The notes under the pieces: model-generated
What the model was told of the DNA's origin: nothing
Seen by the model: only the letters and a program-made list of their open reading frames with translations
Database searches by the model: none
Translations under genes and position numbers: made by a program
NCBI RefSeq assembly: GCF_022539665.2
Contig: NC_081333.1
Span: 8,494,001-8,558,000 of the forward strand
Origin: Daphnia carinata
Taxonomy: Eukaryota
DNA length: 64,000 bases
Direction of reading: 5' to 3'
Part shown: positions 448 to 25,200 of the stretch, one piece after another
Layout of the letters: every line of letters begins with the position of its first letter
Numbering within the stretch: position 1 is the first letter of the stretch

Positions 448-3400
448 ATGGTCATAGAAAAGGAAAATATGGAGGGTTCTGCTTCCCTTGAAACAGCTAT
501 CCCGAAAAAGCGAGGGAGACCTAAAAAGGTATCCATCTTGGGTTATATTAATACAGAATAAATTTTGAATAGCATATGTTTTCAAAAGATCAATTTACCT
601 GCCAGCCCAACTTCTCCAGCTTTTCCTGATGTGAGGGAGGATGATGATCTGTCACTAGTAGTCAAATCTTCCAAGAGATTTGTTGAAAAAATAGTCGCTG
701 AGGATTCTTTAGTTGGAAAGAGTACCCCTACAAGACGTTCTGGGCGTCCCAGAAAGGTAATGTACCAATATCAATGGAGTACATTTAGCTGAGTAACTAA
801 TGTCAGACAAATTCATATTCTGCATCTAAGGGCACTTTACCAGCAACACCATCTTCACCCTTATGTTCTGAGAAAGAGGAAGAAAGTGTACTAGCAAAAA
901 GAAAAATTCTGTCTTCAAAGAAGCACAAAGAAATTATAGGTATAGAGGATTCTTTAGAGGAAAATGTCACCCCTAAAAAACGTGGACGACCCAAAAAGGT
1001 ATTCAAGTATAAGTTGCTGACAAATCAATTCGTTGATGCCGACCGGTTTATCTAGGCTGATTTACCTCCGACTCCATCTTCACCGTCATGTTCTGACAAT
1101 GGGAGAGAAGGAAATTTACCGGCAATCAGGTCGGCTAGGCGGTCCGAGCCACGGCCAAAATTTCTTGATCCATTGCTGGAACCAAGTGCAGAAAATTGCT
1201 CCGAAACACCAGCAAATAGTAAACGAGGAAGAAAACGGAAAGCCATGTCACCCGAAGATGAAATTACCCCAAAATCTCCCGTGAAAGTTAAAACCATACC
1301 GAATGTAATGTGATTAATCTTTAGATTTATAAGCTTATTCATAAACTTTTTTTGTAGGTTGTCTGTGGGGTTTGCAAAAAAGAAATGCCACAGCCAAACT
1401 TCACCTACCATCGATACGCTGTACATTATGGGTTAGCAAGACTAGAAGGAGCATCCCAAGTAATATTTAGCAACTCCTGATACTGGCTCATTGTATCTGT
1501 ATAATGGATAATTTTGCAATATGACTCTTTTATAGGTATTTACGGAAGCCGAAAAAACGCAGCAGTTGAAAAAAACTCTCGAAAAGATTAAGCGATTGTC
1601 TTGTTCCAAGTGCTCCACCAGCTTTACGACACTGTTGGGTTTTCAGTACCATCAGAAACGCTGTGGCGTTGATGCTGCCGATCTTCAAAACATGTACGTA
1701 TTATTTCTCATTCATACGGCAATTGAATCGATCTTTATGTTTTTGTGATATTCAAGGTTGAATGAGTGTACGATTTGCGGTAAACGGGTAATGGCTTTAA
1801 CGGCGCACATGAAGGTTCACGATAAAAAAACAGAAAACGTTGAAAGAATAAAAGCTGCGACAGCAGTACCAGCTCCAAGTCCAGGAACAAAATCGAGAAG
1901 GGTCGCCGCTCAAAAGTAAATACTAATTTGTATAGCACGAAGATCAAATACGTAATATATTTTTTTATTTAGAGCTGCCTCTCTTTTACGGGAACTCAAG
2001 GAAGATCTTGTGGATGGACCAACTCAGAAGCCCATTAGCAAAGCGGTAAATAAAAGCAAAACTTGGAATAACACAAAAAAATATATATATCACCGTAACA
2101 GTATAGCTTAATACTGTAATTGTTTTAGATAAAATTGTTCACGGAACCTTCAAGCAGTAAAGTTACGAACAGTATTATTGGAGCTTGGAAAAAACAAATT
2201 GACCAAAATTCCATAGCTCAGTGCCGGTACCCCAGCTGTCCTTTTAGCTCGGATAACATTGACACATTAAAGGAACATCATGTTCAATGCGAAATCGGTT
2301 CACGCTCCAAATGTTTCGCGTGCCTGAAGTGCGATTTCCGCTCCCAAGATCGGTCACAAATTCTAGAACATGCGCTTAATACCCATGTCACAGAAAACGA
2401 TGACGCATTTGAACTGAGTGGAGCTAGTAGCAGCAGCGAAGACACAGAATACGATTCGGACGCTGAAGGAGGAAGCGGACGTGACAGTGACACCGAGGAC
2501 CAAAGACTAAATAGAAAGAAAATCGTTCCCCAGAACACAAAGAATGTAGAGAAAGCCTACGGGTTACATTGCCATGATTTGCAGCAATTTAAGTCTTTAG
2601 TAACATCACAGCATATTCCAGTTTGGCTCGCGAAATTGTACTACGATAACGAGCATAGCTCTCCACAATTTATTGACTTCTGATTTGTCACTTTGTCTCT
2701 AGCCACAAGAAGAATTTTACGTGGGAAACTTCACTGTACGGGGCCTGGACACCGAATGTGCAAACCTGCGTGAACCTTCCGCCAAATTATTTCCCATCCA
2801 ATGAACAATCAGTTCCTTTTGCCCGCCGGTTAGTTACTTCGGGAAATTTATTTCCGACGAAAATTGACGTCACTCTGGAACGGCTTTCGAGGTTCCAAAG
2901 CAAATTGCAGAATGGTCGAATTCAACATTCTTGTTTCATTTGACAATTTGTAATGTTTTTGTTTGATTTTAGGTACGCCAATCTTTTTCTGTGGGGGGGC
3001 CATACAAAGTGCATCTTGGTGCCCGATGCCTGCAGTCGCAGACGTTGCCACTGTAGACAGAGACCAGTATCTAGCGTTATCAATATTTCACGAAGAACAC
3101 CGATTTAGAAGCGCGTCACAAGCTGCGTTTGCATCCGAGAACCTTATACAAATCTGGAACTGTGGAGCTCTTCACAACGCTATATACCCTCTAGTTGCCC
3201 CACATTTAGAAATTTGTGTCGCACATAACTATGGAAGAATTTGGTCGTTAGTTTGGTGTCCTAGCGGATGCTACGAAAAGGAAAGACTGGGCCTATTAGC
3301 GGCGGCTTGTTCCGATGGCACTATACGTATCTTCAGTATTCCAAACACTTCGCTGTCGACCAAAAAGATTAAGTATACAGAAGTCAGCTTTTTGCGCAGT

Positions 3401-4952
3401 GTACTGTGTCTATGACCATTTAAACGTTTCTTTAGCGAACCGTCGTTTTTACGTATTTGCCCTAATGCCACTCTTCGGTTGAATACCGCAGAAACGAGCG
3501 AATGCACTTCCCTTGATTGGGATTCGACATCTGGCCACAAGTGCGTAATTTCAATTATTTTTTACCCAGGATAGTTACATTCTTTTAATCTGTTAGGTTC
3601 ATCGTAGCCGGGTTCGCTAATGGTATTGTTGGGCTCTGGAACTTACAAACAAAATCTCCTCTTCTTTTGAGGGAAGACGGCCATTATCCTGTGTGGTCAT
3701 TTTATGCCCATTCTACTGTTGTTACTGGTATTTTGTTAATTATTCTGTGGTAATTCAAAAGTCTTAATTTTCGGTTTACATTTCAGCCGTGTCACTGTCG
3801 CCACACCACAGTGATGCGCGTTTTATAGCAACGGCTTCCACTGACCGTACCGTTAAGTTGTGGGATCGTCAAGACCTTGCTGTACCTATCAGTTGGAGTA
3901 AGCGGTCTCGTGTTACGGATATTAAATGGAGGCGGCATTGGCCTGGCATACTTGTATGCGTTGAAGACGTATGCGCGTGAGTATTGCTAACGTTTTTCAT
4001 ACCAGTGGCGCATTCAATGCTTTTGTGTATTTTTTTTCCAGATTATTCCGATCTTCGTCTGTGTTTTATGATTTCGGCTATACGGGAAATAAACAAGCAC
4101 TTCTTCCTCAGAACTCTGTCGTTTGGGTAGTACAAAATTTCTTTAATTTCTATATTAGGGATGGGCATTATTTTCTTGATTTTTACAGTCTTCTGCCGAG
4201 AACGAATACCTTGATGTCATAGCCCATTGTACCAGTGCCGGGGAAATCGTGATATATGCTTCACATTTGGCCGTGTTCGATTGTGATGAGAAGAAACTAC
4301 GAAAACAAAGAATTGTATGCAATATTCTATAGAATTCACGGGAAAATTAGCAAATGATAATTCGCTGAAACGTTTCCTGACTTTTTGCCAATAGTTGCTA
4401 TTACGAACGGATCTAATCGATGCGAGTGCGAAGAAAGACATTTTCCTCAATCGGATGCAAAAGAGCTACTTAGAAAGCTCTAAAAAGGCGCCTGAAATTA
4501 AAACAGAGACCCGAGAAAATCTTAATTATTCGCTTATCTTTAACGATGTCACTACAGTGAGTTACTATTTGTTTGTCGATTGTTGATACTTGAATGCCCC
4601 GGATGATTACTGTTATTATTATAATGTCTTTCTTTTTGTTTCAGCCTATGATCCGGACTATCGGAAATAGAAAGCAACCTCCTGTGATTAGCATCTCTAC
4701 CGAAAATATGGATGTTCATATGCCTTGCCATGATCCGTTGACATCAATCAATAAGGTAAACTAAGTTTTACACTGGCCCTATTATTTAATGCTGATACCA
4801 TGTTAAACCGTTAGATCTCCTTTAATCCCAACTTGGAATCACATGCATGGATGTGTGTCTGTGGTGAAAGTGGGTTGGTCCAATTATTGAAAATTAATTC
4901 CCCTTCGATTTCTAAGGTGACAAATTGCTATGTTAAAGAAATGAATAGCTGA
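448..4952 (+). CDS. GTF3C2: TFIIIC subunit 2 (TFIIIC110/beta, WD40) with N-terminal AT-hooks and ZNF512-like zinc fingers; multi-exon
   Basis: Hand-spliced with GT-AG introns. Exon 1 448-528 (MVIEKEN...KKRGRPKK), then 589-756, 831-998, 1056-~1304, and zinc-finger exons 1358-2637. The join at 2637/2703 stays in frame into WTPNV..NYFPSNEQSVPF. WD40 region: FFCGGAIQSASWCP, LIQIWNCGAL, HNYGRIWSLVWCPSG, RLGLLAAACSDGTIRIFSIP, ATASTDRTVKLWD. The last exon ISFNPNLESHAWMCVCGESGLVQL matches the GTF3C2 C-terminal motif as I recall it. TGA at 4950-4952. The start could instead be the in-frame ATG at 439. Confidence 0.88.
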
Positions 4953-5689: not shown

Positions 5690-7514
5690 ATGACGGGAGT
5701 GTTTCTTCTCATTATTTCGTTATTCGGGAAAATATCAGCGCAGCAAAGTAAGTACCGATTTATATATGCCATTGATTGTTGAAAACTGTAACTTGTCTGG
5801 AGCAAAGATTGGTAAAAAAATTTATTTGAAATTCATTGAAGCCTTAGATTCGATGGAACGCCCAATATTTGAAGGTGAAACAACCCCGTTCCGAACAAAT
5901 TCGCGTCCATTGCTAGCTATCGATCAGCATCTTACGGATTCGAGTGGCCTGCAAGCCAAGCCGATTCTGGTGAATCTACACCAAGTTTCGCCATCATCGC
6001 TAATGATTCCGTTACCGCCACAATCTCATCCACAAACCCCTCCACAGCTTCCGCCTCGTCCTCCATTGCATATCATTCCCCAGCAAATTTCTCCATCGCA
6101 GAGACTGACACCTGTTTCGCCAAATGTACCTTCGATTCGGCAGCCACCTGAGAGCGAAGAATTACCTCGTGTATCTTCCCACCTTCAATTTCCAAGGCAG
6201 CCACTACCGTCGGACCCTCCAGGTAGGACGGTGTTAGCTCCAAGTTCATTGGGTGTTTTAAACCAAGATCGAATTCGCGTTGAGGGATTTCAGCCAATTG
6301 AACGAAGATTTATACCAACAAAAAGGAAACGCTCATTTGAGGTCCTGAGTAATTTAAATACATCTGATGAAGAGAAGGAAGACGAATTTTTGCCGGTTGA
6401 GCCTTCTGCTCGTAGGTTATCCGCACTCGATTTGTTTGACCAACGCGAATCTGATGTCGATAGCAATTTGATCAGCGAAGGCAGTGGTGTAGGTTTTCAA
6501 AATGTTTCACGTTCTGGCTACATCTCTTCCACAAATCTCCGGCCCGAATCAGGTTACCTAGCATCTGCCACACGACTTTCAAACGAGATCGTTAAACCTG
6601 TTATGTCGAAAAATCCCATGAATTCGCGGATGCAGCAAGAAGAAGCAGAGGAGGAAAGCAATGCTATTCTGGATCAGAAAGAGAGCTCTGGGTTTGGGGA
6701 AGTTTCAGGTGTGTCAGCTAACGAAGCAAACGTCACAGAAGCTCCGTCATTTGGGTCTGTCCTTGTATCTGAAGCTTCCGAAGAAAACAGCGAAGATGTT
6801 CCGTTTGAGGTTGGACTCGTTACTAACTCGCCAAATGCAAATGTTACCACGGGTTCGATCACGAATGTAACGTTCTCTACACTTAATCAACCACAGACAG
6901 CTGAAACGAGGCTGCCGTCAACCCGAGCCGCCGAAGGACTGTTTATCCCAACCGCTAGTTCCAATTCTGTTCCTTGTGAGTATAACACTTGACTTGTGTT
7001 AATATTATAAAAAAAAAATAATTCTTGTTTAGTTGTTCGTGACAGCAAATTGCTGCGGATTTTCAAGGAATATGCGGTTTTGATTGTTGTGTGCCTACTG
7101 GGATTGCCGGCCATTGTAGTTCTCTGCTACTTCCTTAACTTGAAGCGGGTGAAACGGTACAGTGGCACAATGGATGTAACACCAAGACAGGCAATTTGCC
7201 ATCACAAAAAATCAGAAAGGTATATCTTATATTCGCTTTTATTGGCTGTAGATCCGGTTAATAATTTTGTTTCTATACATTCAGCCGTAAAACCATTTGT
7301 TCAGAAGAAAATGAACTAGCCTGCTCGCCACCGACTTCGTCCTCGAAAACTCCTCAACCTCCTCCATTCCCGAATGGTAAAAAATACGTTCATTGATGCG
7401 AGGGGGTTTCCACAAATTTATATTCATATGTTTCACTGTTGGGTTCTTATATTATCTAATACATTACCAGGATTATGTGCATCCACCGCAAACAAGCGGT
7501 TTTTTTCAAATTAG
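5690..7514 (+). CDS. Uncharacterised single-pass type I membrane protein with Pro/Ser/Thr/Glu-rich (mucin-like) ectodomain
   Basis: Exon 1 5690-5747 encodes a signal peptide (MTGVFLLIISLFGKISAQQ) followed by gtaagt. Long exon ~5842-6975 is part of the 408-aa ORF. The exon from 7033 encodes a TM helix (YAVLIVVCLLGLPAIVVLCYFL) followed by basic residues KRVKR. Two small 3' exons end at TAG 7512-7514. Intron phases are consistent. Confidence 0.75.
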
Positions 7515-7849: not shown

Positions 7850-8060
7850 TTTGGTCGCAACACGAATTATTAACGTTCAAATGTTTTTAAACTGAATGAA
7901 AGTCTTACATTGAACCTAACATGGTTCTTACCAGAGATCGACATGAACTGTTAGATGCCTTCTGTGTGCAAGTGCTATTATTGCAACAAATTTGTTCTTG
8001 CAACAAAATAAACCCGACTTTTCTTAAACTTAACGGTTATCGCCACAACTTTATTCGTCC

Positions 8061-8494
8061 GTTTTTTACGTTTATTTTAGAAACTTTAATGCTCACGCCA
8101 AAACAACCTTGATTTTTGTGATTTTCAATCAATTTGCAATCGAAATCATGTATTTAAAGTCATATCTAGGATTTAGCCAAAAATGAAAAAGTGAGAAGGC
8201 TATAGCCTTCCAAAATTGAACGCTGAGCTCGATTACGTAAGTGTTTTTCTCCTTAAACCAGTCGTTATTATGTTTTAATAGGAAAATCTATAGAAATTTT
8301 AAGCCCGACTTTTTAAGCCCGAGAAAAATAGGCCCGACTTTTTTGTTTTTTACGTTTATTTAAAAAACCATAAAGCTAATGCAAAAATGAACTTGATTTT
8401 CATGATTTCCATTCAATTTTGAATCGAAACCATGTATTTTAAGTGAAATTTAAATTTTGGCCAAAAATGTAAAAGTGGGAAGGTTTATGGCCTT
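8061..8494 (+). repeat. Diverged ~150-bp direct repeat (8061-8209 vs 8345-8494) near the outer arm end; mirrored in the right arm
   Basis: Both copies read gttttttacgtttatt...cttgatttt..gattt..atcgaaa.catgtattt.aagt...gccaaaaatg.aaaagtg.gaagg..tat.gcctt. A cccgactttt motif recurs at about 8013, 8304 and 8333. Confidence 0.85.
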
Positions 8495-8678
8495 ATGGCT
8501 TATAGCCTTATGGCAATCCGTTTTACACAAAAAAAAAAAATAAAATTTCGCCAAAAAAAAAAAAATCACACTTTTTTCTTTTTTCCGACACGTAGCCATC
8601 TACCGCTCAGACTCGTTATTACTGGCGTAGGCAATTTCAGTCCATTGGATTCCATTCGCAGTTAGTTCAGTAACGTGG

Positions 8679-9920
8679 ATGGAGAATAACGCGTGGCTGG
8701 AGGAACAATTGAAAAATGGATAAGATAATACGACAAAAGGATGGTAAGTATAAACATTATTATATTGGTTTTCAATTATTCATTATTTTTTATTAGATCA
8801 AATTATGAAGCTGCAGGCCCAATTATTGGAACAACACAAAATATTAGATAACAGCAAAGCTAAGGATGGTAAGGCCTAATACGTAATGATTCTATTTATT
8901 TGCTTTTATTCATTTGTGTTTTGTAGCTCAAATTTTGAGTCTACAAGCTCAGCTAGGGGAAAAGAACAAATTGGAACGGACCAGTTTCCATACAGTGAAG
9001 GAGGTTTTTCCAAACTCATCCCTAACTGAACATGAGGATGAATTGGCATTAGGCGAACACAGTCAGGTACCTAAACTTTTCAAATAAGAATTCAAAATAA
9101 GTATAGAATTTTAACAAACAATTATTTATTGTTTAGTTATTCAGTCTACCACCTGACAGTGTGTTAAAGTTTAATTCTGTTAGTGCTGCACTAAAAGAAT
9201 TATTAGTAATAAGTCCATGCAGCGAAGGAAGTGAACAATTGTGGGACCGTATTTGGGCTGAAAATGGGTGTGGTACGGAAACCCAGAAATAGCATGAGTT
9301 CAACATAAAACATGAATTAGGTACTTTTCGGTTTTTTGTCAATCGAAAAAGTATTTTTAATGCTATTATTTTGCATTCACAGAATTTTAATGGGGGTTCA
9401 AGTCAAGTCTGGAAGTGTTACAGAATGGAAGAGTGAGCCTACAGTTGAAAAACACTGAAAGTGCATTACCATTAAGGTATGAGGTAAAGTAATAGAGTAT
9501 GCAAATTGTCTAATGAGAAGTACCATCTTGTGTGAATGAATCCTGTGTAACAGCAATCCTTTATAGTTCTGTCACAGCTAGAAGCCTCAAATAATTCTGC
9601 TTCTCTGGCTAAAGAACAACTTGTCCTTTACGTTCAGAGTGTTGGTGAAGCTGGGTACTTAAATGGCCCTAAAGATGTTTCATTTCGTTGGCATTGCAGC
9701 GATGAACATCATACATGGACTTTTTAGGTATGAAAGGATTTTTCTTCAAATAATTTTGAATTTATGACAAAGCATTTCTCCTCCTTTTTGCCAACCAGGT
9801 CTAATCTACCAAAAAAATTTTATCCTATAGGAAAGGATTTTCATGTACTGGGAACACAACTATCAACAATGCAACATTCTAGGGGTGCTATTTTATCATT
9901 CAAGAGCCTTATACAATGAT
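8679..9920 (+). pseudogene. Disrupted intron-containing gene of unknown family (coiled-coil N-terminus) in the left arm
   Basis: TCAGT (Inr-like) at 8667 precedes ATGs at 8679 and 8716. Exons -8743, 8797-8868, 8927-9066 and 9137-9320 are separated by 53-70 bp GT-AG introns. They read MDKIIRQKD-DQIMKLQAQLLEQHKILDNSKAKD-AQILSLQAQLGEKNK...LFSLPPDSVLKF...EQLWDRIWAENGCG. In-frame TAG at 9290. Further exon-like blocks at ~9554-9727 and 9799-9920 carry stops or frameshifts. Confidence 0.7.
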
Positions 9921-10780
9921 TTTCATCTGCAATTTGTATGGCCTTTCCCAAGCTTCTGCCAGAAGTTGAATCTATAAGTCATGTAAGTCACATGAGCAAC
10001 AATTGAGATGCTTAATGGTGTTGTTTTTCTTTTCTCAATATAGGTTAATAGTAACATTGGATCTGAAAAGATTCTTGGTTGGGGCAAGACACTGAATAAA
10101 TTGTATTGATTGGATGGATGACATGACATTTCTATACTTAATTCGGATTCCCCAGACGGTATTTGATATTTAAAAAATTGAAGTGCATATCTGGGCTCCC
10201 TTCTTTTCTGAAGCCCCGTTTCCCCTTGACTCATAATAAGCCCGTAGGGGGTCATGCCCCTACTGTACGGTATATATAAAAACAACATATACCGAGGTTT
10301 GGAGGGCTCTGGCCGGAAAGGGGACGTGGGGTGCCGCTTAGTCCGATGATGTGTTCACGGAGGGCGATGTGGCTACCCACAAATCCGAACTAAAGGTTAA
10401 TCGCTCCTGTAAAAATGTTCCAAATCTTCAGCTCTTCTTCCGGCTTCTCTTAGCCAATCACCGGGTAATCTCCCCGGTGGGTCAACAAGGCAGTGTCTCC
10501 CCCTGCCTGGGTTGACGGCAACTTTTGAAAGGGCTATTGTGCCTTTTTAAAGTTGCAAAAAAATTGTAATGTGCAGAGAATTGTCAATAAATTTTTTTTT
10601 CTAAAATGTTTTTTGCAAAATTTGTTTCTTTCATTGTCTGTGTTCGCTTTGTTCACACATTATCATTATCAACTTTTTTTTTCATTTAGCTTGCTCAATG
10701 CACCTTTGGTTTTTATGCCACCTTTGTTGGTAAGCATTGTTTCCATTGGTTTATCGTTTATCTGTAAGCATTCATTTTTA

Positions 10781-10845
10781 TCCGGGGATCGAACCCTGGA
10801 CGTTCGGCATACCGCGCCGATGCTCTACCAATGAGCCATGAATCA
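10781..10845 (-). pseudogene. Degenerate tRNA-like unit 1 (A box and B box)
   Basis: Minus strand: TGGCTCATTGGTAGAGCA-TCGGC-GCGGTAT-GCCGA-ACGT-CCAGGGTTCGATCCCCGG. D arm, 5-bp anticodon stem and T arm are recognisable. The acceptor stem does not pair and U33 is absent. Confidence 0.8.
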
Positions 10846-10959
10846 CATGATGTCAAGTTGGTTTTTTTCTAGCCACTTGCGGACTTGCATTTACACTTTG
10901 AATAAAACTGAAATGCAATACTGCAATATTCTTTTCCACATTTAGATATAGATCTTTAT

Positions 10960-11030
10960 ACATCTACTAAGGTTTGAACCCAGGGTAACAGTTATCGCAG
11001 CTGAATGCTCTACCACAGGGCTATGGACCT
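10960..11030 (-). pseudogene. Degenerate tRNA-like unit 2 (A box and B box)
   Basis: Minus strand: TAGCCCTGTGGTAGAGCATTCAGCTGCGATAACTGTTACCCTGGGTTCAAACCTTAG. B box GGTTCAAACC is good; the anticodon arm is decayed. Confidence 0.7.
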
Positions 11031-11126
11031 TATGATAGCAATAGAAAGATAAACATATATTTGTGAAAGACTGCGTTAACATCCTAGAAGATAACATATG
11101 ATGTGCGATAATAAAAATTTTAGATA

Positions 11127-11197
11127 TATCTCATGGCTCAATGTTAGAGCATCGGCGTTGCACGCTGAATGTCTGGGGATCGATTCTCATACCAGTA
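11127..11197 (+). pseudogene. Degenerate tRNA-like unit 3 (tRNA-Ala(TGC)-like)
   Basis: TGGCTCAATGTTAGAGCA-TCGGC-GTTGCAC-GCTGA-ATGT-CTGGGGATCGATTCTC. TGC sits at the anticodon position and the T loop is GATCGA, as in eukaryotic tRNA-Ala. 44/57 nt identical to unit 1 by hand count. Acceptor stem lost. Confidence 0.75.
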
Positions 11198-11342
11198 AAC
11201 CAATATACAAATACAAAATTACTTCAGAAAATATCCAGGTATTACACGTTCTTTCTCAAGTTCAAGAATTCAAAAAGTGTAATAAATAATAATTGAATAC
11301 TTACAGATAAACGATACAATGGTGGCAAAAACAAAGATGAAA

Positions 11343-13992
11343 TGAGCAAGCTAAATGAAAAAAAAAGTTGATAATGATAATGTGTGAACAAAGCGAACAC
11401 AGACAATGAAAGAAACAAATTTTGCAAAAAACATTTTAGAAAAAAAAATTTATTGACAATTCTCTGCACATTACAATTTTTTTGCAACTTTAAAAAGGCA
11501 CAATAGCCCTTTCAAAAGTTGCCGTCAACCCAGGCAGGGGGAGACACTGCCTTGTTGACCCACCGGGGAGATTACCCGGTGATTGGCTAAGAGAAGCCGG
11601 AAGAAGAGCTGAAGATTTGGAACATTTTTACAGGAGCGATTAACCTTTAGTTCGGATTTGTGGGTAGCCACATCGCCCTCCGTGAACACATCATCGGACT
11701 AAGCGGCACCCCACGTCCCCTTTCCGGCCAGAGCCCTCCAAACCTCGGTATATGTTGTTTTTATATATACCGTACAGTAGGGGCATGACCCCCTACGGGC
11801 TTATTATGAGTCAAGGGGAAACGGGGCTTCAGAAAAGAAGGGAGCCCAGATATGCACTTCAATTTTTTAAATATCAAATACCGTCTGGGGAATCCGAATT
11901 AAGTATAGAAATGTCATGTCATCCATCCAATCAATACAATTTATTCAGTGTCTTGCCCCAACCAAGAATCTTTTCAGATCCAATGTTACTATTAACCTAT
12001 ATTGAGAAAAGAAAAACAACACCATTAAGCATCTCAATTGTTGCTCATGTGACTTACATGACTTATAGATTCAACTTCTGGCAGAAGCTTGGGAAAGGCC
12101 ATACAAATTGCAGATGAAAATCATTGTATAAGGCTCTTGAATGATAAAATAGCACCCCTAGAATGTTGCATTGTTGATAGTTGTGTTCCCAGTACATGAA
12201 AATCCTTTCCTATAGGATAAAATTTTTTTTGGTAGATTAGACCTGGTTGGCAAAAAGGAGGAGAAATGCTTTGTCATAAATTCAAAATTATTTGAAGAAA
12301 AATCCTTTCATACCTAAAAAGTCCATGTATGATGTTCATCGCTGCAATGCCAACGAAATGAAACATCTTTAGGGCCATTTAAGTACCCAGCTTCACCAAC
12401 ACTCTGAACGTAAAGGACAAGTTGTTCTTTAGCCAGAGAAGCAGAATTATTTGAGGCTTCTAGCTGTGACAGAACTATAAAGGATTGCTGTTACACAGGA
12501 TTCATTCACACAAGATGGTACTTCTCATTAGACAATTTGCATACTCTATTACTTTACCTCATACCTTAATGGTAATGCACTTTCAGTGTTTTTCAACTGT
12601 AGGCTCACTCTTCCATTCTGTAACACTTCCAGACTTGACTTGAACCCCCATTAAAATTCTGTGAATGCAAAATAATAGCATTAAAAATACTTTTTCGATT
12701 GACAAAAAACCGAAAAGTACCTAATTCATGTTTTATGTTGAACTCATGCTATTTCTGGGTTTCTACCACACCCATTTTCAGCCCAAATACGGTCCCACAA
12801 TTGTTCACTTCCTTCGCTGCATGGACTTATTACTAATAATTCTTTTAGTGCAGCACTAACAGAATTAAACTTTAACACACTGTCAGGTGGTAGACTGAAT
12901 AACTAAACAATAAATAATTGTTTGTTAAAATTCTATACTTATTTTGAATTCTTATTTGAAAAGTTTAGGTACCTGACTGTGTTCGCCTAATGCCAATTCA
13001 TCCTCATGTTCAGTTAGGGATGAGTTTGGAAAAACCTCCTTCACTGTATGGAAACTGGTCCGTTCCAATTTGTTCTTTTCCCCTGGCTGAGCTTGTAGAC
13101 TCAAAATTTGAGCTACAAAACACAAATGAATAAAAGCAAATAAATAGAATCATTACGTATTAGGCCTTACCATCCTTAGCTTTGCTGTTATCTAATATTT
13201 TGTGTTGTTCCAATAATTGGGCCTGCAGCTTCATAATTTGATCTAATAAAAAATAATGAATAATTGAAAACCAATATAATAATGTTTATACTTACCATCC
13301 TTTTGTCGTATTATCTTATCCATTTTTCAATTGTTCCTCCAGCCACGCGTTATTCTCCATCCACGTTACTGAACTAACTGCGAATGGAATCCAATGGACT
13401 GAAATTGCCTACGCCAGTAATAACGAGTCTGAGCGGTAGATGGCTACGTGTCGGAAAAAAGAAAAAAGTGTGATTTTTTTTTTTTTGGCGAAATTTTATT
13501 TTTTTTTTTTGTGTAAAACGGATTGCCATAAGGCTATAAGCCATAAGGCCATAAACCTTCCCACTTTTACATTTTTGGCCAAAATTTAAATTTCACTTAA
13601 AATACATGGTTTCGATTCAAAATTGAATGGAAATCATGAAAATCAAGTTCATTTTTGCATTAGCTTTATGGTTTTTTAAATAAACGTAAAAAACAAAAAA
13701 GTCGGGCCTATTTTTCTCGGGCTTAAAAAGTCGGGCTTAAAATTTCTATAGATTTTCCTATTAAAACATAATAACGACTGGTTTAAGGAGAAAAACACTT
13801 ACGTAATCGAGCTCAGCGTTCAATTTTGGAAGGCTATAGCCTTCTCACTTTTTCATTTTTGGCTAAATCCTAGATATGACTTTAAATACATGATTTCGAT
13901 TGCAAATTGATTGAAAATCACAAAAATCAAGGTTGTTTTGGCGTGAGCATTAAAGTTTCTAAAATAAACGTAAAAAACGGACGAATAAAGTT
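11343..13992 (-). repeat. Right arm of inverted repeat (2650 bp)
   Basis: Reverse complement of 8047-10697. Confidence 0.97.
12120..13360 (-). pseudogene. Mirror copy of the disrupted spliced gene in the right arm
   Basis: Reverse complement of 8679-9920, with an additional 2-bp deletion (~12763) and a 1-bp homopolymer insertion. Confidence 0.7.
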
Positions 13993-14568
13993 TCTTTATA
14001 CTGTTCTCTACTTCCCACTTTTGTCAAAATCTGAAAAAATTGACATCTCTCGGAATTGAATGAAGTTTACCCTGTACAATCAGTATTGAACCGTGACTTT
14101 AAATTTGATTTGTTTTCTCATCTAACTCAATCGTTTTGGAAATAAATCGAACAAAAGTGCTGTCGGCGCAAAAATTTTGTTCCTTTTTTAATGCGTTTTT
14201 TTTCAAAACTGTAATCTCACAGCTAAACAACTTGGTTTTCGTGATTGTAGTTTAATGTCTTCCTATTTTTTTGAGATCCAATTTGATTTCAGAATTACCG
14301 TCGTACACTACGATATGGTAATAATGTCACTTTAGTACATTAGAAACTATCCAAGCGTGGACGTACAGAGGCCGCTTCTTAGTTTCTTGAATTCGGTACG
14401 ATTGGAATTCAAATCTGCATGTCTTACTTTATTAGCTCTTTAAAAATGCAATGGTCATACCTTTTATTTCTTGTAGGAAATTGCGGTTTGCACTTTACAA
14501 CGGGAACCCTCCGCGATCGCAAATTATAAATTAATTATTTTAATCAACTTAATCCCTCCTCGATTTTT

Positions 14569-17271: not shown

Positions 17272-17307
17272 GGAGAACTGCGGAAACGCCTCCACCCGAA
17301 CATTCAC

Positions 17308-17600
17308 TAGAAAGCTGGCTGGAACAGTTCAGGTAACAGACAGCTTTAATTCGAAACAAGCGAATGTGACGCTCACCAATTTCGTAGTGCCAATAACTTC
17401 CTGCATATTCAAACAAAAATTACTTATCAAGACCTTTGAACAATGCCGTCGGACGAGCCAACGGTCTAGGCTCTCTACAGACTTACTGCGCATGCGGAAG
17501 ACGAGGAATCCGTAATAAGGTAAGCCAATTAGTGCGGCAGAGGTCCGAAATCAAACAAGGGCTGCGTCTGCCCAATTGCATAATCCTATGGTACCATGTT
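17308..17600 (-). promoter_or_regulatory. Putative 5'UTR intron and promoter region of the boss-like gene
   Basis: Minus-strand gtaagt donor at 17481-17486 and tttctag acceptor ending at 17308. TGCGCATGCG (NRF1/Ewg-like) at 17487-17496 and CCAAT motifs at ~17525 and ~17572. Confidence 0.3.
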
Positions 17601-19277
17601 TAAATTTTCTCTTTGCATTGGACTGGCATCCGGTCGTGTACAACTGATCTATAAAAAGGTCCTATTTGGAATGACTTAAACTGCCATTGTAACATGAGTG
17701 GGCCATTACAAATGTAAACTAACAACAACTTACGGATTCTAAGGGCGGCGGTTTTTAAAATGTTTTGGCCTCCTTCTCTCCATGCGCAAAAACCGCATCA
17801 TTTTAAAGTTACGGTTTAAAAAAGGAAATTTAAAAAACTGCGTCGCCATACTGGCTGGTATTTTGCCTGAGTTGCTGCATCGCATCTTTGTTTGTTTTCT
17901 TTTTCCAGCGTTGATTCGTGAGAGAATGTACGATATCACACTAAACCCCCAACTCTTTCTAAGGATTCAACTGAGTCCGGATCGTGGATAACACGGGGTC
18001 ATTTCTAATTCATGGGAGGATAGCAAATCAAAGGATCAACGGGTAGAAGGACTGCGCTCAACATGATTACAGTGTAGTAGGGGAACAAACTAGTTCCATA
18101 ACAATTACATTCGCTTCGTGCACAGTAGATTGCCTAATTGCGATAACCTCGACTATGGAACGCTCGCTTCTTTAACATCTGCTGCGTGTTCGGTAATAAG
18201 ATGTATTAAGAGACAGGATGTTTCTGTGAATGAATATTGTTGGCTACAGATAACGAATGACATGAGAAGAGGAAAAGAAATAGGTATGAGTATTAGTGGC
18301 AGCAATCCGATCGGATGTGGAAACCGGACAGAACAAGTTTCAAAGTTCGGCATTTAAAGGTAACACAAGTATTGTAAACAAGAATTTGGGGAAAAGGGAA
18401 TGGAGAAAGCGAAAGAAAAATGAACGGGCGATTACAGCATTTCTTTTTTTCTTGGCACCGCTGCTCAACGCTACCGTGTAATAATATTTAAATTCAAACT
18501 TTTCGATTGACAAAAAGGAAACCCGCAAAACGAGGGGGTTCCTGAAAACAATTTTAAAAAATGGAGAGGGGGAAAAAAAAGAAGCATATATGTACTTATT
18601 TCAGTGAAATCAATACCGAAACGGGGCGTTGACCAACGAGGAAACAGGTTTTTCAGGGATAGAAAAAGAGGAGGATGGGAGGAAAATGTCACTGTGTGAG
18701 TGAGTGTAAAGTGGCAACGTAATGGCTAACGTAAGCACAGACATTTCTCGGGTTGCCCTGTCCTATGCATATATTCAAAACTACCCACACCCGAAATCAT
18801 TATGCGTCATGACTTGGATCGATTCGAAAATCCTTTCAGTCAACATTTCTTTTTTTTTTTTGTTCTTAGTCTTTTCCGGCTGTACTTTGTTTTTCATGTG
18901 TTGCTTGTTCACTTCCGTGATTTTCCAATCGCTAAATATACACTGATGTCCAATTATTTATACTCCGAAGGGATCCAAACGAAAAAAAAAGCAACATGGA
19001 AGGGACTTGCTATCAGACATCTTATAGCTTGAAAAGAGGAAAATGATAATAAAAGGAAGCAAAACGTAATAGAATAAAAAATTGCTGTTAAAAATATACG
19101 CTACAAGGGGATAGGAGGAAGAGAAATAGAATCAAATCGCTAGCAAAGGTTTTTTTTGTTATATACCGTAATTTTGTCGATTGTTTTCCTTTTTTTTGTT
19201 TGTTTTTTTTGTTTATGTTGTCAACGTCTTACCCTCGTTCAGCTACTGCACTTGATTACGTGGCCTTTTCGCAGCGC

Positions 19278-22200
19278 TTACAGACACTTCCTAGAGCAGC
19301 CGCATTTGCGGACGATTTCAATCTCCTTGGTGTAGCGCGTTCCGTCATTACAGATGAGCTTCAGGCGGCGTTTCTTGGAGCGTCGAGGTCGGCAGCAATC
19401 GGAACCGCAGTTGCCGCTGCAGACGGAATTCCGGACTGGCTTTGTCGATCGGCAGCCGTGTTCCATGTAGTAGTCACGGTATTGTTCCTTCCGGCATGTC
19501 GGCGCTATAACGATAGCAGGTTAAGCAACGAATATGCGAAAGCAACCGTGAATTAACACTTACCAGTGTCGCAGTATTTGCCTCCCCAACCAGCTTGACA
19601 TTTGCAGCTGTAATTCTTGCCGTCTTTCTTTGAAACGCACTGACCCTTACGGCAGCGGTGATCCTTGCACGGGTCATATGAAGTCAGCACTGACGTCTTG
19701 AGCGTGTTCATCTGCACATTGTAAAATTTGCACAAGACAATTGAAACACTTGTTTTCGATGTTCGTGTTTGCATCTTTTCATTTTTCTTACATAGCTCTG
19801 CGGCTGGGCGGCACTGTCTTTGACTTCACGCTGTCCATTATCCTTTTTCAGGTTGCTGGCTTTGGGCTTGACCATTTCGGCGACCGTGTCCTCTGATTCG
19901 GAATTGGCACAGCCAGGGATGATTCGGTTCTGTTTGGTAGCAGCCTGAGCGTAGTCTGTTAACTTGCCGTTGATCCAGAGTTCTGTTGGGAAGACAAACG
20001 CGACAGGTTACGATGTGAAACCAAAAGAAATAAAACGAAAGAGTCTATAAAAACGAAAAACGAATTGCAATAAAGACCTTTTATGCAACCGCGGAAGCTA
20101 GTGGTGTTTCTGAGTTGCCACTGTCGTGCGGCTTTCTCAGCCGCTTCATTGGGCAGGCCTCCAATAAATAGTGGTGTGCTCAAGCGCAGGTACTCGTGCT
20201 CTCCCTCATTGATCATGGAACGAGCGTTCCCTTGATCAACTCGCAAGGTAAAGTTCTTCTTCTGCGACAGCAACTCCACGGTGTGGTATCGACCATCGGA
20301 CACTGTCTCGTAGCTAAAACAACATCGAAAGATAAAGTAAACATTTAAAAGCCTGGTCATGCGGCTATAAAGTGAATAACAAACCTGAACATGTTGGAAA
20401 CTGGGTAGTTTCCGACATCGTAGCTGACGCGAACGCGGCCTCGGAAGAGTTCGACGGCGATGTGCTGCGATTCTCCATTGTAGACAAGAATGCCGTTTTC
20501 TTCTTCGGTCGAGAAGATCATGGTAATGTTGGCTTCTGGTTTGGTCTTCAGCGATGGCATCTCAATGTAAGAACCATTTTGGGCGAAGCTAACGCTAGTC
20601 AAAAATTCGCAACGCTTTCCTGGATGGACATCGTCATATAAAAACGCGATAGAACCAACATTTTTCAACTGATTTCAAAATGGACTTACCGGTGTAACCC
20701 GAGGCGCACTTGCAAATGTAATCCGTCAATCCTTGAGGTTGAAAGCAAATGCCATTTTGGCAATCGTGCTGTTGACAAGGTGAAGTCTGTGGGTATAACA
20801 GACTCACCATGGGGGAGGCCTCGCAAAACTTGCCAGAAAATTCAGGCGGACATTTGCAAGTGTATTCGTTAATACCGTCAATACACGTGCCACCGTTCTA
20901 TAAAAAAGTTGGAACAATTCGAAATTCGATTCACTAGAGATCCCTATATAGAAACTAGTAATACCTGGCACATGTGGTTGACACAGTCGTCGTTATTAAT
21001 TGTACAATTTTCACCGCTGAAACCAAGGGCGCATTGGCAAGTGTAGTGATCACCGCGGTCCAAGCAAATGGCACCATTTTTGCAAGGATTGAACTCTTTG
21101 GTGCAGAACTGGATCTTCTTTTCGCAGTACGTTCCTAAAAGAAAAATAGAGCTGTATTGCAGGACGAAACTAACCAATACTACAATAGATAATTCAAATC
21201 ATTACCTGTGTATCCACTCTGGCAATCACAACGGTAGGATTCGACTTGATCGACGCAGGTGGCATTGTTGACGCACTTGTGATCCAGGCAGTCGTTGATG
21301 TTTGTTTCGCAACGATCTCCCTCGTAACCAGCAGAGCAGTGACAACTGAGTAATAAAACGCGCAAGTTTAAAAGGCGAATTTAACGCATGACAAATCGAG
21401 TGGCAATACCTGAAACGACCTTCTTCTAAAACTTTGCAAATGGCAGAATTGCGACAAGGGTTTCCATAACAGGCGTCTATGGCAGACTCGCAAAGTTTTC
21501 CGTGATACCCAGGAGCGCACAGGCATTCATAATCCCTCTCGCCCGTCGGCCGGCAAGTGGCGCCGTTTTTGCAGGGGAAGGTATAGCACGTGTCGCACTT
21601 GGCCAGCACTTCATTGGAAATTTTGCCTAAGGAATAACAATCAAGAGAAAGCCGAAACATCTCAATTTGAGGTGGATAAGAAAATGGTTCAATTTAACGT
21701 TGTTTACCTTTGCACTGGAAGTGATCAGCGGGGGAAGTTAGAAGGAGCTTGTCTCTCAACAACGTCGGCTCGGCGCAGCGAGCGATGCCCGGCTCAACAT
21801 AGTCTCGTTTGACCCACTCGGCCAGCCAGCGAAGATTGCAATCGCAGTAGAATGGATTGGAGCCAAGAGCCCTGTACCGTTCAAACACGATCATTAAAAA
21901 CGTGCGTCGGAACGAGTCGGGAAAACAGAGAAACTCGGGAAAGAAAAAAAGAATTTTTAAATTACAAGTGGGTGATGGATTGTAGATCGGTGAAAGCGCC
22001 TTCAGGTATCATGGATACATCGTTCCCGTGCAACGACCTGAGATTGAATAGTAATAATAAAAAGAAGAATAAAAATGGCAATCAACACGTTAGAGACAAC
22101 GGTCACGTTCTGTTGGCACGTACATATTATAACTCGATTTGAATCAAGCCAAATGCTAGAAAAACAAACAACACACGAAAAAAAGAAATGACGTACAGAA

Positions 22201-25200
22201 TGCGGAGAGAGAGCAGTCCAGAGAAGGCGTTTCGCTGCACGCACTGCAGTTTGTTGTAGCTGACGATCCTGTAATCAACAAAAGCAAATAGGAAAACCGT
22301 CAGGGCTTGACCGAGTTTGTTTTTTTTTGGCACATGCCGCAAAAGGGAGGCAACTTACAAGCTGGAAAGTTTCGTCAAATTGACGAAGGTGTTGTTGGAT
22401 AGAACGGAGACCATGTTATTACTGAGGTCGAGCCGGGTGAGGGCGCGCAGGTGGCTGAGCCGATCCGACTGGATGGACTGGATTTCGTTCACATCCAGGT
22501 AGAGCTCCGTAGTTTCCGGCGGTATGTTCTTAGGAATTTCGCGCAGCTTAGCCCGACTGCAGCGAACTATGGTGCCGGTGCACGTGCATTTCGGCGGGCA
22601 GTAATCCTCTCCCAAACATCCTTGGTCATCCAGCTCGGTGCAGCGGAATTCAAACGACGGCATGTCTTGAAGTGGAATGTCCTTGACGCGGGCCGGGCTG
22701 GCGCAGCGGGGCGCGCCCGTACTTAGCTCTTGCTCTTTTTTGCGCAACCAGTCGCCGAACCAGGCCATGTGGCAATTGCAGTGCAGCGGGTTACTCAAAA
22801 TATTCCTATCAGTGCAATCATTCAAACGTTACTACAGGCAATCAAACGACGGTATCATCAAAGCGATCAAAGGATAACCAGACACAAACAAAAAAAAAAA
22901 CCGACCGATAGGATAACATATACTTACAAAGAAGTGAGAGATCTCAAGTAATCAAACGACCCCGGGGTGACGCACGTAATCTTATTTTGGAACAGTGACC
23001 TACAACACAAAATTGCTGTTAATCGACACGTTTTTTCTTTTCCGAGTGAAGGTGCTGCTATAAAAAAACGAACGACATACAAAGTCCGCAAGCTGACCAG
23101 TCCGGTGAACATTTTGTTGTGGATTTCCTGGATGGCATTCTCGGCCAAGTTTCTGTTCATAAAATAAATTTTAAAAATCAGAATGAGAATGAAAAATATT
23201 CAAACGGGAAACAAGAGACAATTAAGACAGTAGAGAAAGAAAACGGAATGAGGACAACGCGGGGTCACGAAGTGCTCGGCACTCATCTTATGAAATCCAG
23301 AAAATAAAAAGGAATAAAAATAATGGCTGTGTCCAGTCATATAAACCAGGATTATTGCAGCGCAAACCCATTTTGATGTCACGACTAGGACTCATCTCGT
23401 GCGGGGCAAAGCCGCTGTCATGCGTTAATCACGCGTCTCGAATTGCCCGGCAGTTATGAACAACAACAGCTTGACGGTCAGAGAGCGAAACAATAACATC
23501 AACAGCGCAAAGAAAAAGAAGGCGCAGTCTCTCGTTGGGAATAGTGAAAGAAGGGCTTTCAAAACGATCTTTTTTAATCCGCTCAACAACTGCGTTGCAT
23601 CTCATACGGCCGTAATGGCTACGCTGTTCTCTTTCTCTTTTATACTTGACGCTACAACTTAAAACCTACAACTTACAAGTCAACGAGCGTGCTGGCTCCC
23701 TCGAAGGCTCCGTTCTCGATGGAAGAGATTTGATTTCGCCTCAAATCGACTTTAAGAAGATTGGGCAGGTCTCGGAACATGCCATCCGCTTTAATCCGGA
23801 CGATCTCATTGTCGTTCAAAATCCTGTCAAAGCATTAAACAAAAAATACGGAAATGTGACACAAAGCCGACAATGATTCCAAGGTTCAAATTTTTTTTTT
23901 TACAGTTCGGTGGTGTAGAGAGGAAGTTCACGTGGGATCTCCTTCAATCCTTTGTTGGAGCAATCGACAATAGTTCCCTTGCAAGAACACTCAGCCGGAC
24001 AGGACGGATCATCTTCACAAGGGCTGATTTCCAACAGATTGCGTTCCAGGTCACGATCTGTCAGTCACAGTTACGACCAGATATTTAAGCATTTAATGAA
24101 GCCACACAAATTGAGTGAGACGATAAGGAGTTTCCAGTTTACCACTGCAGCGTGATTTCTCGTCACGCAAGACGGCGATGCGGCGTCTCTGCAATCGACG
24201 GGGAGATTCGCAACGGACGCCCGAGGTTTCGACTGGTTTGCGGTGCAAATAATCAGCCAACCACGTGAGGTAGCAATCGCACAAGAAAGGGTTCCTTCCA
24301 AGATGCCTGTAGAAAGTTAATTGAAGTTAACATCATCGAGCTTTTAACATAGAAAAAATGAACATTTCTCTTACAGTGTTTGAATGTTGCGAAGACTGTC
24401 GAACGTTCCATTGAGCAGGGTCGGGATGTTGTTGTCGTAGAGAGACCTGGATCGAAGCGAAAAAAAGAAAGAAACCACAATAGGTCAATATCCGACAGTA
24501 TAAGGATTCGGAAACTAATTGCATATAGATAACGTAATGGGCGTGGACGGTGTGCCTTGTTAGGTCGTCGGGCAAAGCTTTGCGCTTAAAAAAAAAAAAA
24601 AAAACAATAATTTTGCGGGCAGATAAAATACGAGGAATTGAGAAAAAAAAAAGAAGGGAATTTGCTGTCTCTCGAGAGCTACGCAATTGGATATCGACAT
24701 TGAAAGAGGACGAAGTTAGACGGGCCGGCCCTGGCCCGAAAGAAGCTTGGCTCTTGCCGAGAAGTAGGCGGTGGCACAGGTCTTATGTAAATGTAGGCTT
24801 TTAGTCCCGCAACGCTAATTAAATCAAACTTTTTGAGGAAGCGCACAAGCTCCTCTGATGCCGCCGAGTGTTATCTTCTCTTATTTTCTTTTGAGCGGGG
24901 AGGGGGGGTTGGCCACTTGGCGTGACTGGACTCCATCCACTTGACGATGAATGCTGTTCCGTGTCGGGATCGAACTACCTCATAAAGGGATATTCATCTA
25001 CGATTCGTATCTATCGGCTCCATCATGGAACGGGACTCGGGAAGAGGGGAAAAAATGCATATAATAATACGAGCCATTTTGAAAAAAGCCTTCGAGTTTC
25101 AATACTCGAGGCTTCTAAGTGTTCTCAGGGTCATCCCAATCCATCCAACCCGTCCATCTAATCACCACGCCTCTTGATACCTTTTCCCTCTGACTTGGCT

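Follow-up and report, generated by a model that had tools for sequence, protein, structure and literature searches.

A 5.9-kb palindrome in the 64,000-nt stretch of Daphnia carinata DNA analysed here (the window) consists of two almost identical arms, each carrying a spliced gene that points to the centre and belongs to a large, dispersed family. We tentatively interpret this palindrome as one of dozens of scattered non-autonomous D. carinata DNA elements, in which an old tail-to-tail dimer is moved by a rolling-circle partner of the Helentron/HLE2 type and its arms are kept identical by copying each other. Taken alone, the proposition that the dimer is the moving unit seems probable. The papers searched hold no description of such an element, which apparently is undescribed; the initial annotation of this DNA likewise recognised no described element with this layout.

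Architecture of the palindrome and its centre

Aligned base by base, the two near-identical arms reported in the initial annotation (Table 1) show the three differences noted there: T/C at 8954/13085, a gap of 2 bases in the right arm opposite 9276–9277 and one additional A at 12230 in the right arm. Self-comparison confined the inverted repetition to this locus: of 4,998 exact inverted 40-mer matches in the whole window, none lay outside 8047–13992. The flanking genes are unique and differ between the two sides. Run X1, which we take to be RNA owing to its exact removal of introns (none of the four runs is recorded as RNA), agrees with the unique flanks of the window at 0–1 differences per 470–560 nt. 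A 561-nt contig from this run bridges the right junction, extending 159 bases to one side and 402 to the other, with no difference. Run X2 gave four contigs and X4 none. Among the contigs listed, none bridges the left junction or covers the entire palindrome, and none from run X3 bridges an empty site. The exact arm ends (AAC..GTT) carry no duplicated word at k = 2–8 and no 6-bp duplication, in agreement with the earlier remark that no target-site duplication is obvious.

Table 1 Features of the palindrome and its flanks (positions in the window)
Feature	Position	Strand	Remarks
Repeat unit 1	8005..8262	+	High-copy family; begins outside left arm
Left arm	8047..10697	+	2,651 bp
Repeat unit 2	8290..8530	+	79% versus unit 1; end motif degenerate
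Inr-like TCAGTC	8637..8642	+	Putative start site
Left-arm gene, 131 aa	8716..9292	+	Coding exons 8716–8743, 8797–8868, 8927–9066, 9137–9292
3′ part of transcript	9293..10610	+	Intron 9321–9382; optional intron near 9484–9637; poly(A) signal 10586
G+C-rich hairpin cluster	10172..10560		Mirrored at 11480–11868
Centre	10698..11342		645 bp; decayed mirror image flanking asymmetric core
tRNA-like unit U1	10782..10845	-	A and B boxes intact; acceptor stem absent (3/7 pairs); faces left arm
tRNA-like unit U2	10959..11030	-	A and B boxes; 5/7 acceptor pairs; ARAGORN only at lowered threshold
tRNA-like unit U3	11127..11190	+	Mirrors U1, with degenerate B box; TGC (Ala-like) in the anticodon position; 3/7 acceptor pairs; faces right arm
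Right arm	11343..13992	-	2,650 bp; 3 differences from left arm
Right-arm gene copy, 132 aa	12744..13323	-	One amino-acid change; frameshift after residue 126
Right junction	13985..14010		Mini-hairpin ATAAAG-TTT-CTTTAT over arm end and filler
Right-flank terminal-repeat relative(s), older	14011..14246		Same family; broken off where palindromic motif starts

The centre has the length given earlier for a spacer, but it is not unique sequence. Positions 10698–10777 mirror 11342–11291 with indels and 10788–10841 mirror 11184–11131 at 43 of 54 bases; overall the mirrored parts are about 80% identical, indels aside. A contig of X1 over 10955–11130 has 17 differences and represents a 10%-diverged copy of the centre; the same run holds a variant joint at 11235–11305.

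The tRNA-like units with A and B boxes do point outwards, as first described, with U1 and U3 facing the left and right arms and U2 as a third unit. Their Rfam tRNA scores (26.5 bits at 10782–10838 on the minus strand, 22.3 bits at 11133–11190 on the plus strand) lie below the gathering score of 29, ARAGORN at default settings called none of them, and with their incomplete acceptor stems we regard them as SINE-head-like rather than as tRNA genes. RNase-P cleavage is unlikely because the acceptor stems are missing. On either strand the hairpin cluster folds better than every one of 100 shuffles (z −4.2 and −5.6), bearing out its description, and it is a separate high-copy repeat in a related species, with a boundary at 10172. 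It gave no Rfam match as a ribozyme, 7SK, RNase P/MRP or telomerase RNA; matches up to E 5 were just tRNA and low-complexity snoRNA or miRNA.

The arm gene and its family

GT..AG joints in X1 confirm the splicing of the arm gene, which points to the centre, and the Inr-like TCAGT was found again at 8637. Exons 1–3 encode a coiled-coil module related to the D. magna proteins P0060 and P0064, and exon 4 matches residues 16–60 of D. magna P0062 at 53% identity (E 1e-11). P0062 appears to be a fragment of an IS3EU-like transposase, in which a transposase-type HTH would follow the part shared with exon 4: its residues 55–164 are similar to the HTH part of integrase-core proteins of the rva_4 type (PF24764) in features (0.89–0.93) and in structure (TM 0.66–0.83). 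The stretch shared with exon 4 is only about 45 residues long, and P0062 is a gene model, itself possibly chimeric, with no match in Pfam, NCBIfam or PDB and a single one, at E 0.8, against plasmids. Judged by these homologies, the arm gene is chimeric, with exon modules related to two different families of D. magna genes, of which one represents a transposase N-terminus. The initial statement that there is no transposase thus holds for a DDE core, which the arm lacks, but not for the transposase-related fragment in exon 4. Of 115 candidate longer proteins, none was homologous to the broken 3′ frames (P0001), which were also without match in Pfam and NCBIfam. Family proteins gave weak coiled-coil matches only in Pfam, and AlphaFold models (mean pLDDT 46.7 and 41.7) were too low in confidence for fold searches. 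P0066, a bacterial-type repeat protein, was judged a chance coiled-coil match.

In D. carinata the family has 66 or more annotated loci, spread over ten large contigs of different sizes. Its 95 member proteins fall into 14 clusters, and every one of the 14 representatives and of the 56 listed members is from this species. The family is transcribed, and its members have open 131–162-aa frames and spliced transcripts. Because it is dispersed with its introns kept, the family has moved as DNA.

Pairing at other loci is suggested by the locus ids, with the reservation that consecutive NCBI numbers only suggest adjacency and that tandem pairs would look alike. Among 63 listed ids there are 7 gaps of 1, in six groups on five contigs, compared with 0.2–0.5 on average and a maximum of 5 in 20,000 random draws; about 50 of the ids have no consecutive partner. 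Five of the six groups are pairs with one common protein record and the sixth is identical across its overlap, and four of the six carry 3–4 residues absent from all others among the 56 members listed. In the window, the two arm proteins are identical at 125 of 126 residues, compared with 121 of 126 for the closest member in the database. Three residues present in both arms are found in no database member covering those positions. These private changes, common to both copies, indicate that the arms copy each other at this locus and suggest the same at the six others.

Outer repeats and known element classes

The diverged direct repeats first noticed in the arm span 150 bp at 79% identity (8061–8209 and 8345–8494). 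Unit 1 contains a 16-bp palindrome, GAAGGCTATAGCCTTC, at 8195–8210, followed by a decayed hairpin, an end that appears Helentron/HINE-like in its motifs. Unit 2 has TATGG words at 8486, 8494 and 8509 and merges into the promoter region of the gene; the inner TATGG words are mirrored on both sides. The outer repeat unit extends past 8047 to about 8005, and the right flank holds a further member. The arms therefore do not end at element termini but at breaks within a high-copy repeat. The right junction looks like a template-switch joint.

The palindromic motif has only four matches in the window (two sites, both strands), and its two copies are mirror images facing inward, not a 5′/3′ pair. The repeat units face into the gene instead of enclosing it as a 5′/3′ subTIR pair, a counter-point to our favoured interpretation. 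The same motif with an intact hairpin (7-bp stem) occurs in L001 and L003, contigs of 2.7 kb, either circular or collapsed from a tandem array, that have 99-nt terminal repeats and carry an unrelated gene. L003 has a single motif and no T run after the hairpin, and its similarity to the window past the motif was reached by 293 of 2,000 shuffles, which is not significant alone. The other two of the four loci from the motif scan, L002 and L004, were chance motif matches, the repeat being present in L001 and L003 only. The repeat family also forms opposite-strand joints in X1 and X3.

Elements of the HLE2 type insert between T and T without a duplication and have an autonomous Rep/helicase partner with the same ends. 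HINEs, in the available text of PMC4067079, have a palindromic subTIR and a 3′ stem-loop. The present palindrome resembles HINE/DINE-1 (HLE2) elements, as far as the available parts of PMC4067079 and PMC11417382 describe them, in its palindromic motif, a candidate for their 12–16-bp subterminal motif beside a stem-loop (the hairpin being decayed here), the lack of a target-site duplication, and captured gene fragments with a link to chimeric gene duplicates; the repeat relative in a circular or tandem, gene-bearing 2.7-kb unit is a further likeness. It differs in that no matching 5′/3′ subTIR pair surrounds the cargo, with the 5′ subTIR expected 2–4 nt from the 5′ end not seen, and a dimer of 2.65-kb arms with a gene per arm is absent from those parts of the two papers. 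The D. pulex Helitron consensus ends (TC-start type) in the available text of PMC2884549 showed no match to the palindrome by eye or motif. Neither Rep nor helicase was found in the window or in L001–L004, pattern scans of viral and GTDB contigs gave no match, as did further DNA-pattern and protein scans apart from the one that yielded L001–L004, and no 5′ subTIR behind a T run was found at the palindrome.

Foldback elements (Drosophila FB/FB-NOF, Galileo) and long-TIR Mutator elements have defined TIR ends, 7–9-bp duplications and genes in the loop. The palindrome shares with them very long inverted arms, direct repeats near the ends, the lack of its own transposase and inward transcription; unlike them, it has a spliced gene inside each arm, ends that are breaks in another repeat and a loop that is a decayed mirror. 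The early proposal of a foldback-type non-autonomous element with a gene in its long inverted repeats therefore survives in part: the inverted repeats are there, and the family is dispersed with introns and includes identical consecutive-id pairs, but sharp TIR termini with a target-site duplication (k = 2–8) are absent from this copy, whose arm end lies in a repeat unit. Gene-bearing palindromes of the mammalian Y and X are few, very large and immobile. They show the same pattern of arm-to-arm gene conversion, with arms more than 99.8% identical, private changes in common and a divergent spacer, whereas here a 6-kb unit is apparently scattered across all large contigs. To IS3EU/GingerRoot elements the possible links are exon 4, homologous to the N-terminus of a D. 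magna protein whose next part resembles an HTH region of rva_4 type, and TATGG near the promoter; the differences are the missing DDE core and arms of 2.65 kb, compared with GingerRoot TIRs of 100–150 bp in the available text of PMC6839031. Crypton (tyrosine recombinase/GCR1_C), considered on account of the TATGG words and an Atlas match to a GCR1_C cluster of just 0.76, was rejected, with no Pfam match and no 5–6-bp terminal direct repeat. So was the tRNA-targeting Dada, as described in the available part of PMC3706591, the palindrome having neither a split tRNA nor a 6–7-bp duplication.

Origin, movement and transcription

The history we favour would start from what is seen in the arm, chimeric exon modules preceded by repeat units that have a palindromic motif at their end. 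Read-through beyond the decayed 3′ hairpin may have captured the cargo, and a single inverted duplication would have created the dimer before the family spread; that it is older than this spread is suggested by the mirrored centre, which has diverged more (about 20% plus indels) than the family copies among themselves. The family then dispersed as DNA, presumably with the dimer as moving unit, and the arms could copy each other through gene conversion within a chromatid, or when a single strand that folds back in the course of transposition is repaired. The mRNA of each arm would stop before the centre, the central A/B-box units may function either as short units for Pol III or as a barrier formed by TFIIIC, and the outcome would be little long hairpin RNA.

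Several other origins have to be weighed against this history. The mobile unit could be one arm (gene plus flanking repeats), with palindromes recurring as local inverted duplications, by template switching or repair at repeat-rich ends, and kept by gene conversion, this locus being one accident. The repeat unit is continuous on the left and is cut and joined by mini-hairpin and filler on the right, which makes at least the outer portion of the right arm a copy made locally from the left side. In addition, most of the ids listed lack a consecutive partner, and the repeat family makes opposite-strand joints. We nevertheless consider this origin unlikely: arms of 99.85% identity and a gene 96% like the family, around a centre mirrored at only ~80% with large indels, call for an old dimer, and X1 contains the asymmetric centre in a second, diverged version. 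Slightly more doubtful still is an origin from an IS3EU/GingerRoot cut-and-paste transposon, of which the dimer would be a non-autonomous derivative made up of two left ends (promoter and first transposase exon); its true termini would lie near the TATGG words at 8486–8513, and later conversion, by copying flanking DNA, would have hidden its target-site duplication. The homology of exon 4 to the P0062 N-terminus, next to an rva_4-type HTH region, speaks for it, as do, in the available text of the sources, IS3EU termini TA..TA with 6-bp duplications (PMC10045372), TAYGG in rust fungi (PMC12730594) and gene fragments carried by GingerRoot elements (PMC6839031). Against it, the arm ends have neither TA..TA (or TG..CA) termini nor a 6-bp duplication, TATGG is five letters long and arises here within unit 2, in its degenerate end motif, and the brevity of the shared stretch and the uncertain standing of P0062, described above, weaken the homology. 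That the second arm is an artefact of assembly or a fold-back read is highly improbable. Assembly polishing can equalise near-identical repeats, and the whole stretch and the left junction lack a listed contig. Palindromes in a bdelloid draft assembly were indeed artefacts, according to the available text of PMC8494291. However, distinct unique genes lie on either side, an asymmetric decayed centre is impossible from a fold-back read, the arms differ at three places and the 561-nt contig of X1 reads across the right junction with no mismatch.

The initial annotation also proposed a source of long hairpin dsRNA or endo-siRNA, for which no support was found. Both arm genes give the same sense RNA, the poly(A) signal precedes the centre, and transcripts of the tRNA-like units, with predicted T4 stops after about 225 and 290 nt, would reach the innermost 80 bp of the arms only. 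In X1 the summed contig depth reaches thousands over the exons and drops to about 2 at 10928–11091; such depth cannot rank gene parts and is hence not counted against read-through. Maize Mu killer is a single silencing locus that produces hairpin RNA from an inverted duplication with the 5′ part of a transposase-related gene. The palindrome shares this layout, its promoters point to the centre and the family is transcribed, so that read-through over the centre would yield 2.6 kb of dsRNA silencing the family or a parent transposon. We regard this predicted role as very unlikely: unlike Mu killer, the palindrome is multi-copy and spliced, with open frames, a termination signal ahead of the centre and tRNA-like boxes within it.

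A bolder form of the favoured history, rather improbable as a whole, has the entire 6-kb dimer jumping through a folded-back single-stranded intermediate, with mismatch repair resetting the arms at each jump. The central A/B-box units would stop convergent read-through and hide the 2.6-kb hairpin from RNA interference, and the result would be a multi-copy, species-specific coiled-coil family, possibly a transposase-derived helper or inhibitor. Arm divergence would then date each insertion, as it does with LTRs.

Work on arm-to-arm conversion has so far centred on a small number of large palindromes on sex chromosomes. Should the moving unit be the dimer, one clonal-sexual model organism would offer dozens of independent 6-kb palindromes of the same sequence, in which the rate and tract length of such conversion would be directly measurable and which would test how long palindromes escape deletion and RNA silencing. 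At least some 66 ‘uncharacterized’ RefSeq genes would be explained as the cargo of a single young element, which would illustrate how lineage-specific gene families of Daphnia originate.

Extent, setting and ends of the palindrome

Self-comparison of the window bore out the two near-identical arms, with three differences, and the 645-bp centre described in the initial annotation. Across the whole 64-kb window, 0 of 4,998 inverted 40-mer matches lie outside the palindrome, which is flanked by two different host genes, each with its 3′ end towards it. Its right junction is bridged by a 561-nt contig from sequencing run X1 (13834–14394, 0 differences, 159 and 402 bases either side); among the contigs listed for X1, X2 and the related-species run X3, no piece spans the left junction or the whole palindrome. 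Because artefactual palindromes are on record elsewhere (excerpt of PMC8494291), we keep a very small probability that the second arm arose from assembly or a fold-back read, but the asymmetric, decayed centre and the different unique flanks are an impossible product of such a read. The palindrome is confirmed as a real, unusual structure.

Features of the window (window positions)
Feature	Position	Remarks
Gene	560–4220	Spliced; AT-hook-like motifs, zinc fingers, WD40 repeats (WD40 alone shown by domain match); presumably resembles TFIIIC subunit GTF3C2
Left neighbour	~5700–7470	Spliced gene
Left arm	8047–10697	Long inverted repeat
Arm-gene introns	8744–8796, 8869–8926, 9067–9136, 9321–9382	From X1 joints and loose ends
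Hairpin cluster	10172–10560	Second repeat
Centre	between arms	645 bp
Hairpin	10877–10926	Imperfect, 50 bp; asymmetric core of centre, between U1 and U2
U2 (tRNA-like unit)	between U1 and U3	(−)
Right arm	11343–13992	3 differences from left arm
Right neighbour		Class C GPCR gene (7tm_3 match)
tRNA-Thr(TGT) call	17304–17386 (−)	ARAGORN; inside GPCR gene region; probably false
Gene	19000–24800 (−)	LRR, EGF (both shown by domain match), laminin-G-like and cystine-knot-like parts; presumably a slit orthologue

A duplication looked for at the exact palindrome ends was not found, in agreement with the annotation. The alignment between units 1 and 2 of the outer ~150-bp direct repeats extends outward to 8005, beyond the arm, and the right arm is cut within a repeat unit, where a mini-hairpin and filler connect it with an older member of the repeat family (14011); this argues that 8047 and 13992 bound a copied tract and are not the termini of a transposon. 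The outer repeats belong to a family very abundant in X3 (877 and 488 contigs aligned, up to 59 per variant), and its units terminate in a 16-bp palindrome. In two metagenome contigs, L001 (1–2797) and L003 (1–2803), which are 99.4% identical and have 99-nt terminal repeats, this motif precedes an intact 7-bp hairpin. Each contig is either a circle or a collapsed tandem unit of 2.7 kb, and the gene on it is unrelated; the similarity between the window and L003 behind the motif was reached by 293 of 2,000 shuffles and is not significant alone. In both contigs a 279-aa frame matches 3-keto-disaccharide hydrolase weakly (E 3e-4) and apparently has an intron and a signal peptide; this gene was possibly acquired horizontally and amplified by the outer repeat family.

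The arm gene and its family

Run X1, recorded as ‘DNA?’, was taken as RNA because its contigs omit predicted introns at GT..AG joints, including those of the left neighbour gene; its contigs on the arm gene (757 aligned, 290 at 99% or more) derive from the whole family, not solely this locus. The encoded protein has 131 aa in the left copy and 132 aa, with a late frameshift, in the right, and is up to 96% identical to D. carinata RefSeq proteins, which identifies the host as this species or one very close to it. An exon 4 query returned 14 clusters with 95 member proteins (from 26 candidates); among the matches listed, all 56 members are from D. carinata, dispersed over contigs of ten sizes (7.9–14.4 Mb). 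The family comprises at least 66 distinct locus ids, with a mean pairwise identity of 88%. Of the ten matches obtained when a profile was searched against 1.84 billion representatives, two are family members and one is probably due to chance; the other seven are short, five of them named D. magna or D. sinensis and two without a name.

By profile matches the gene divides in two, exons 1–3 resembling the start of D. magna proteins P0060 and P0064, and exon 4 that of P0065, P0068 and the putative D. magna IS3EU-like transposase fragment P0062. Sequence searches of Pfam, NCBIfam and the PDB with P0062 gave no match; its downstream region resembles the helix-turn-helix (HTH) part of rva_4 (PF24764) integrase-core proteins, which we take to be tied to IS3EU/GingerRoot, in language-model features (0.89–0.93) and in structure comparison (TM up to 0.83). 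These two origins argue for a chimera of modules, one putatively transposase-related, without a catalytic core. The genomic copy still has its introns, as does a related DNA contig (X2, 8602–8837); this points to movement at the DNA level. Behind the coding end, stop-broken frames (9293–10130; for example, 9383–9483 and 9590–9724) resemble remains of further captured coding sequence, for which a homologue was searched and not found.

In X3 the hairpin cluster shows a separate boundary (11 contigs), and it matches no Rfam family; in the X3 species it is very abundant as a separate repeat. The boundary at 10172 starts TT-GAAGTG, comparable over six letters only with the 5′ end of HINE-Da-41A, a non-autonomous Helentron (excerpt of PMC4067079 supplement 4). 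In one X3 contig the head of unit U1 (10845) is joined to 10211. A low-depth contig of X3, a run from another species with ~86% identity in the flanks, agrees with all 162 nt of 10022–10183, reflecting either contamination or recent transfer.

The centre and putative paired loci

The centre, annotated as a spacer, is a decayed mirror, not unique DNA: 10698–10777 mirrors 11342–11291 with indels; two of the tRNA-like units, U1(−) and U3(+), are mirror images at 43 of 54 bases. A and B boxes are present in U1, U2 and U3, with a degenerate B box in U3; acceptor stems are absent, so the units are SINE-head-like. Predicted U1 and U3 transcripts would meet T4 runs at 10620 and 11420, just past the poly(A) signal (10586) and its mirror image. 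The GTF3C2-like gene probably lies near B-box units by chance. An X1 contig covering 10955–11130 differs at 17 positions and X1 also holds arm–centre border variants, whereas it matches the unique flanks near-exactly; the centre is therefore present in other copies. For a centre more diverged than the gene family itself, next to arms that are 99.85% identical, the simplest explanation is that one old dimer spread and its arms were homogenised within each copy.

In a single numbering series, 63 ids were compared (two ids from a later series and one that came up subsequently were omitted). A gap of 1 occurs seven times, giving six groups on five contigs, against averages of 0.21 and 0.49 in random draws and a maximum of 5 in 20,000. 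Consecutive ids suggest possible adjacency; as points against, the members listed are 56 of 95, and ~50 listed ids have no consecutive partner. Five of the pairs have a single protein record each, and the sixth is identical across its overlap, their nearest other relatives being 91.5, 93.1, 93.9, 96.9, 99.4 and 96–97.5% identical. Private residues, absent from every other listed member, number three or four in four pairs, one in another and none in the last. The window arms follow the same pattern: 125 of 126 residues are equal (121 of 126 with the closest listed member), and both arms share three private residues. The right-arm variant at 8954/13085 (Leu to Pro, QAQP) recurs, among the members listed, only in P0029, a protein encoded by a consecutive-id pair, through either recurrent mutation or conversion between loci.

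Mechanism and relation to known elements

Indirect evidence makes the dimer the probable mobile unit, whatever the enzyme. The favoured reading, at somewhat below even probability, is that it moves as a non-autonomous element by a rolling-circle-type mechanism, with arms copying each other. It is unlikely that a single arm moves and local duplications recur, and marginally less likely still that an IS3EU-derived element was built from two left ends (excerpts of PMC10045372, PMC12730594 and PMC6839031); a hairpin-RNA silencer is improbable.

The initial interpretation, a foldback-type non-autonomous element carrying a gene, is partly supported: the structure is foldback-shaped and its gene family is dispersed with introns, but an end duplication is absent and the arm ends are not termini. 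The 16-bp palindromic end, the L001/L003 hairpin and the cargo recall HINEs and Helentrons (excerpts of PMC4067079 with supplements 4 and 8, and of PMC11417382), but subTIRs enclosing the cargo, a T|T site and a Rep/helicase did not come to light in this analysis. Because one defining feature of each is lacking, the palindrome is not assigned to HINE, foldback, IS3EU or Crypton elements. No description of such an element was found in the open literature searched, and its component repeats may already be catalogued in databases such as Repbase or Dfam. Y palindromes display arm-to-arm conversion. In its workings the Daphnia palindrome would resemble a cargo element of foldback shape and Helentron-like character that shows a Y-palindrome conversion pattern.
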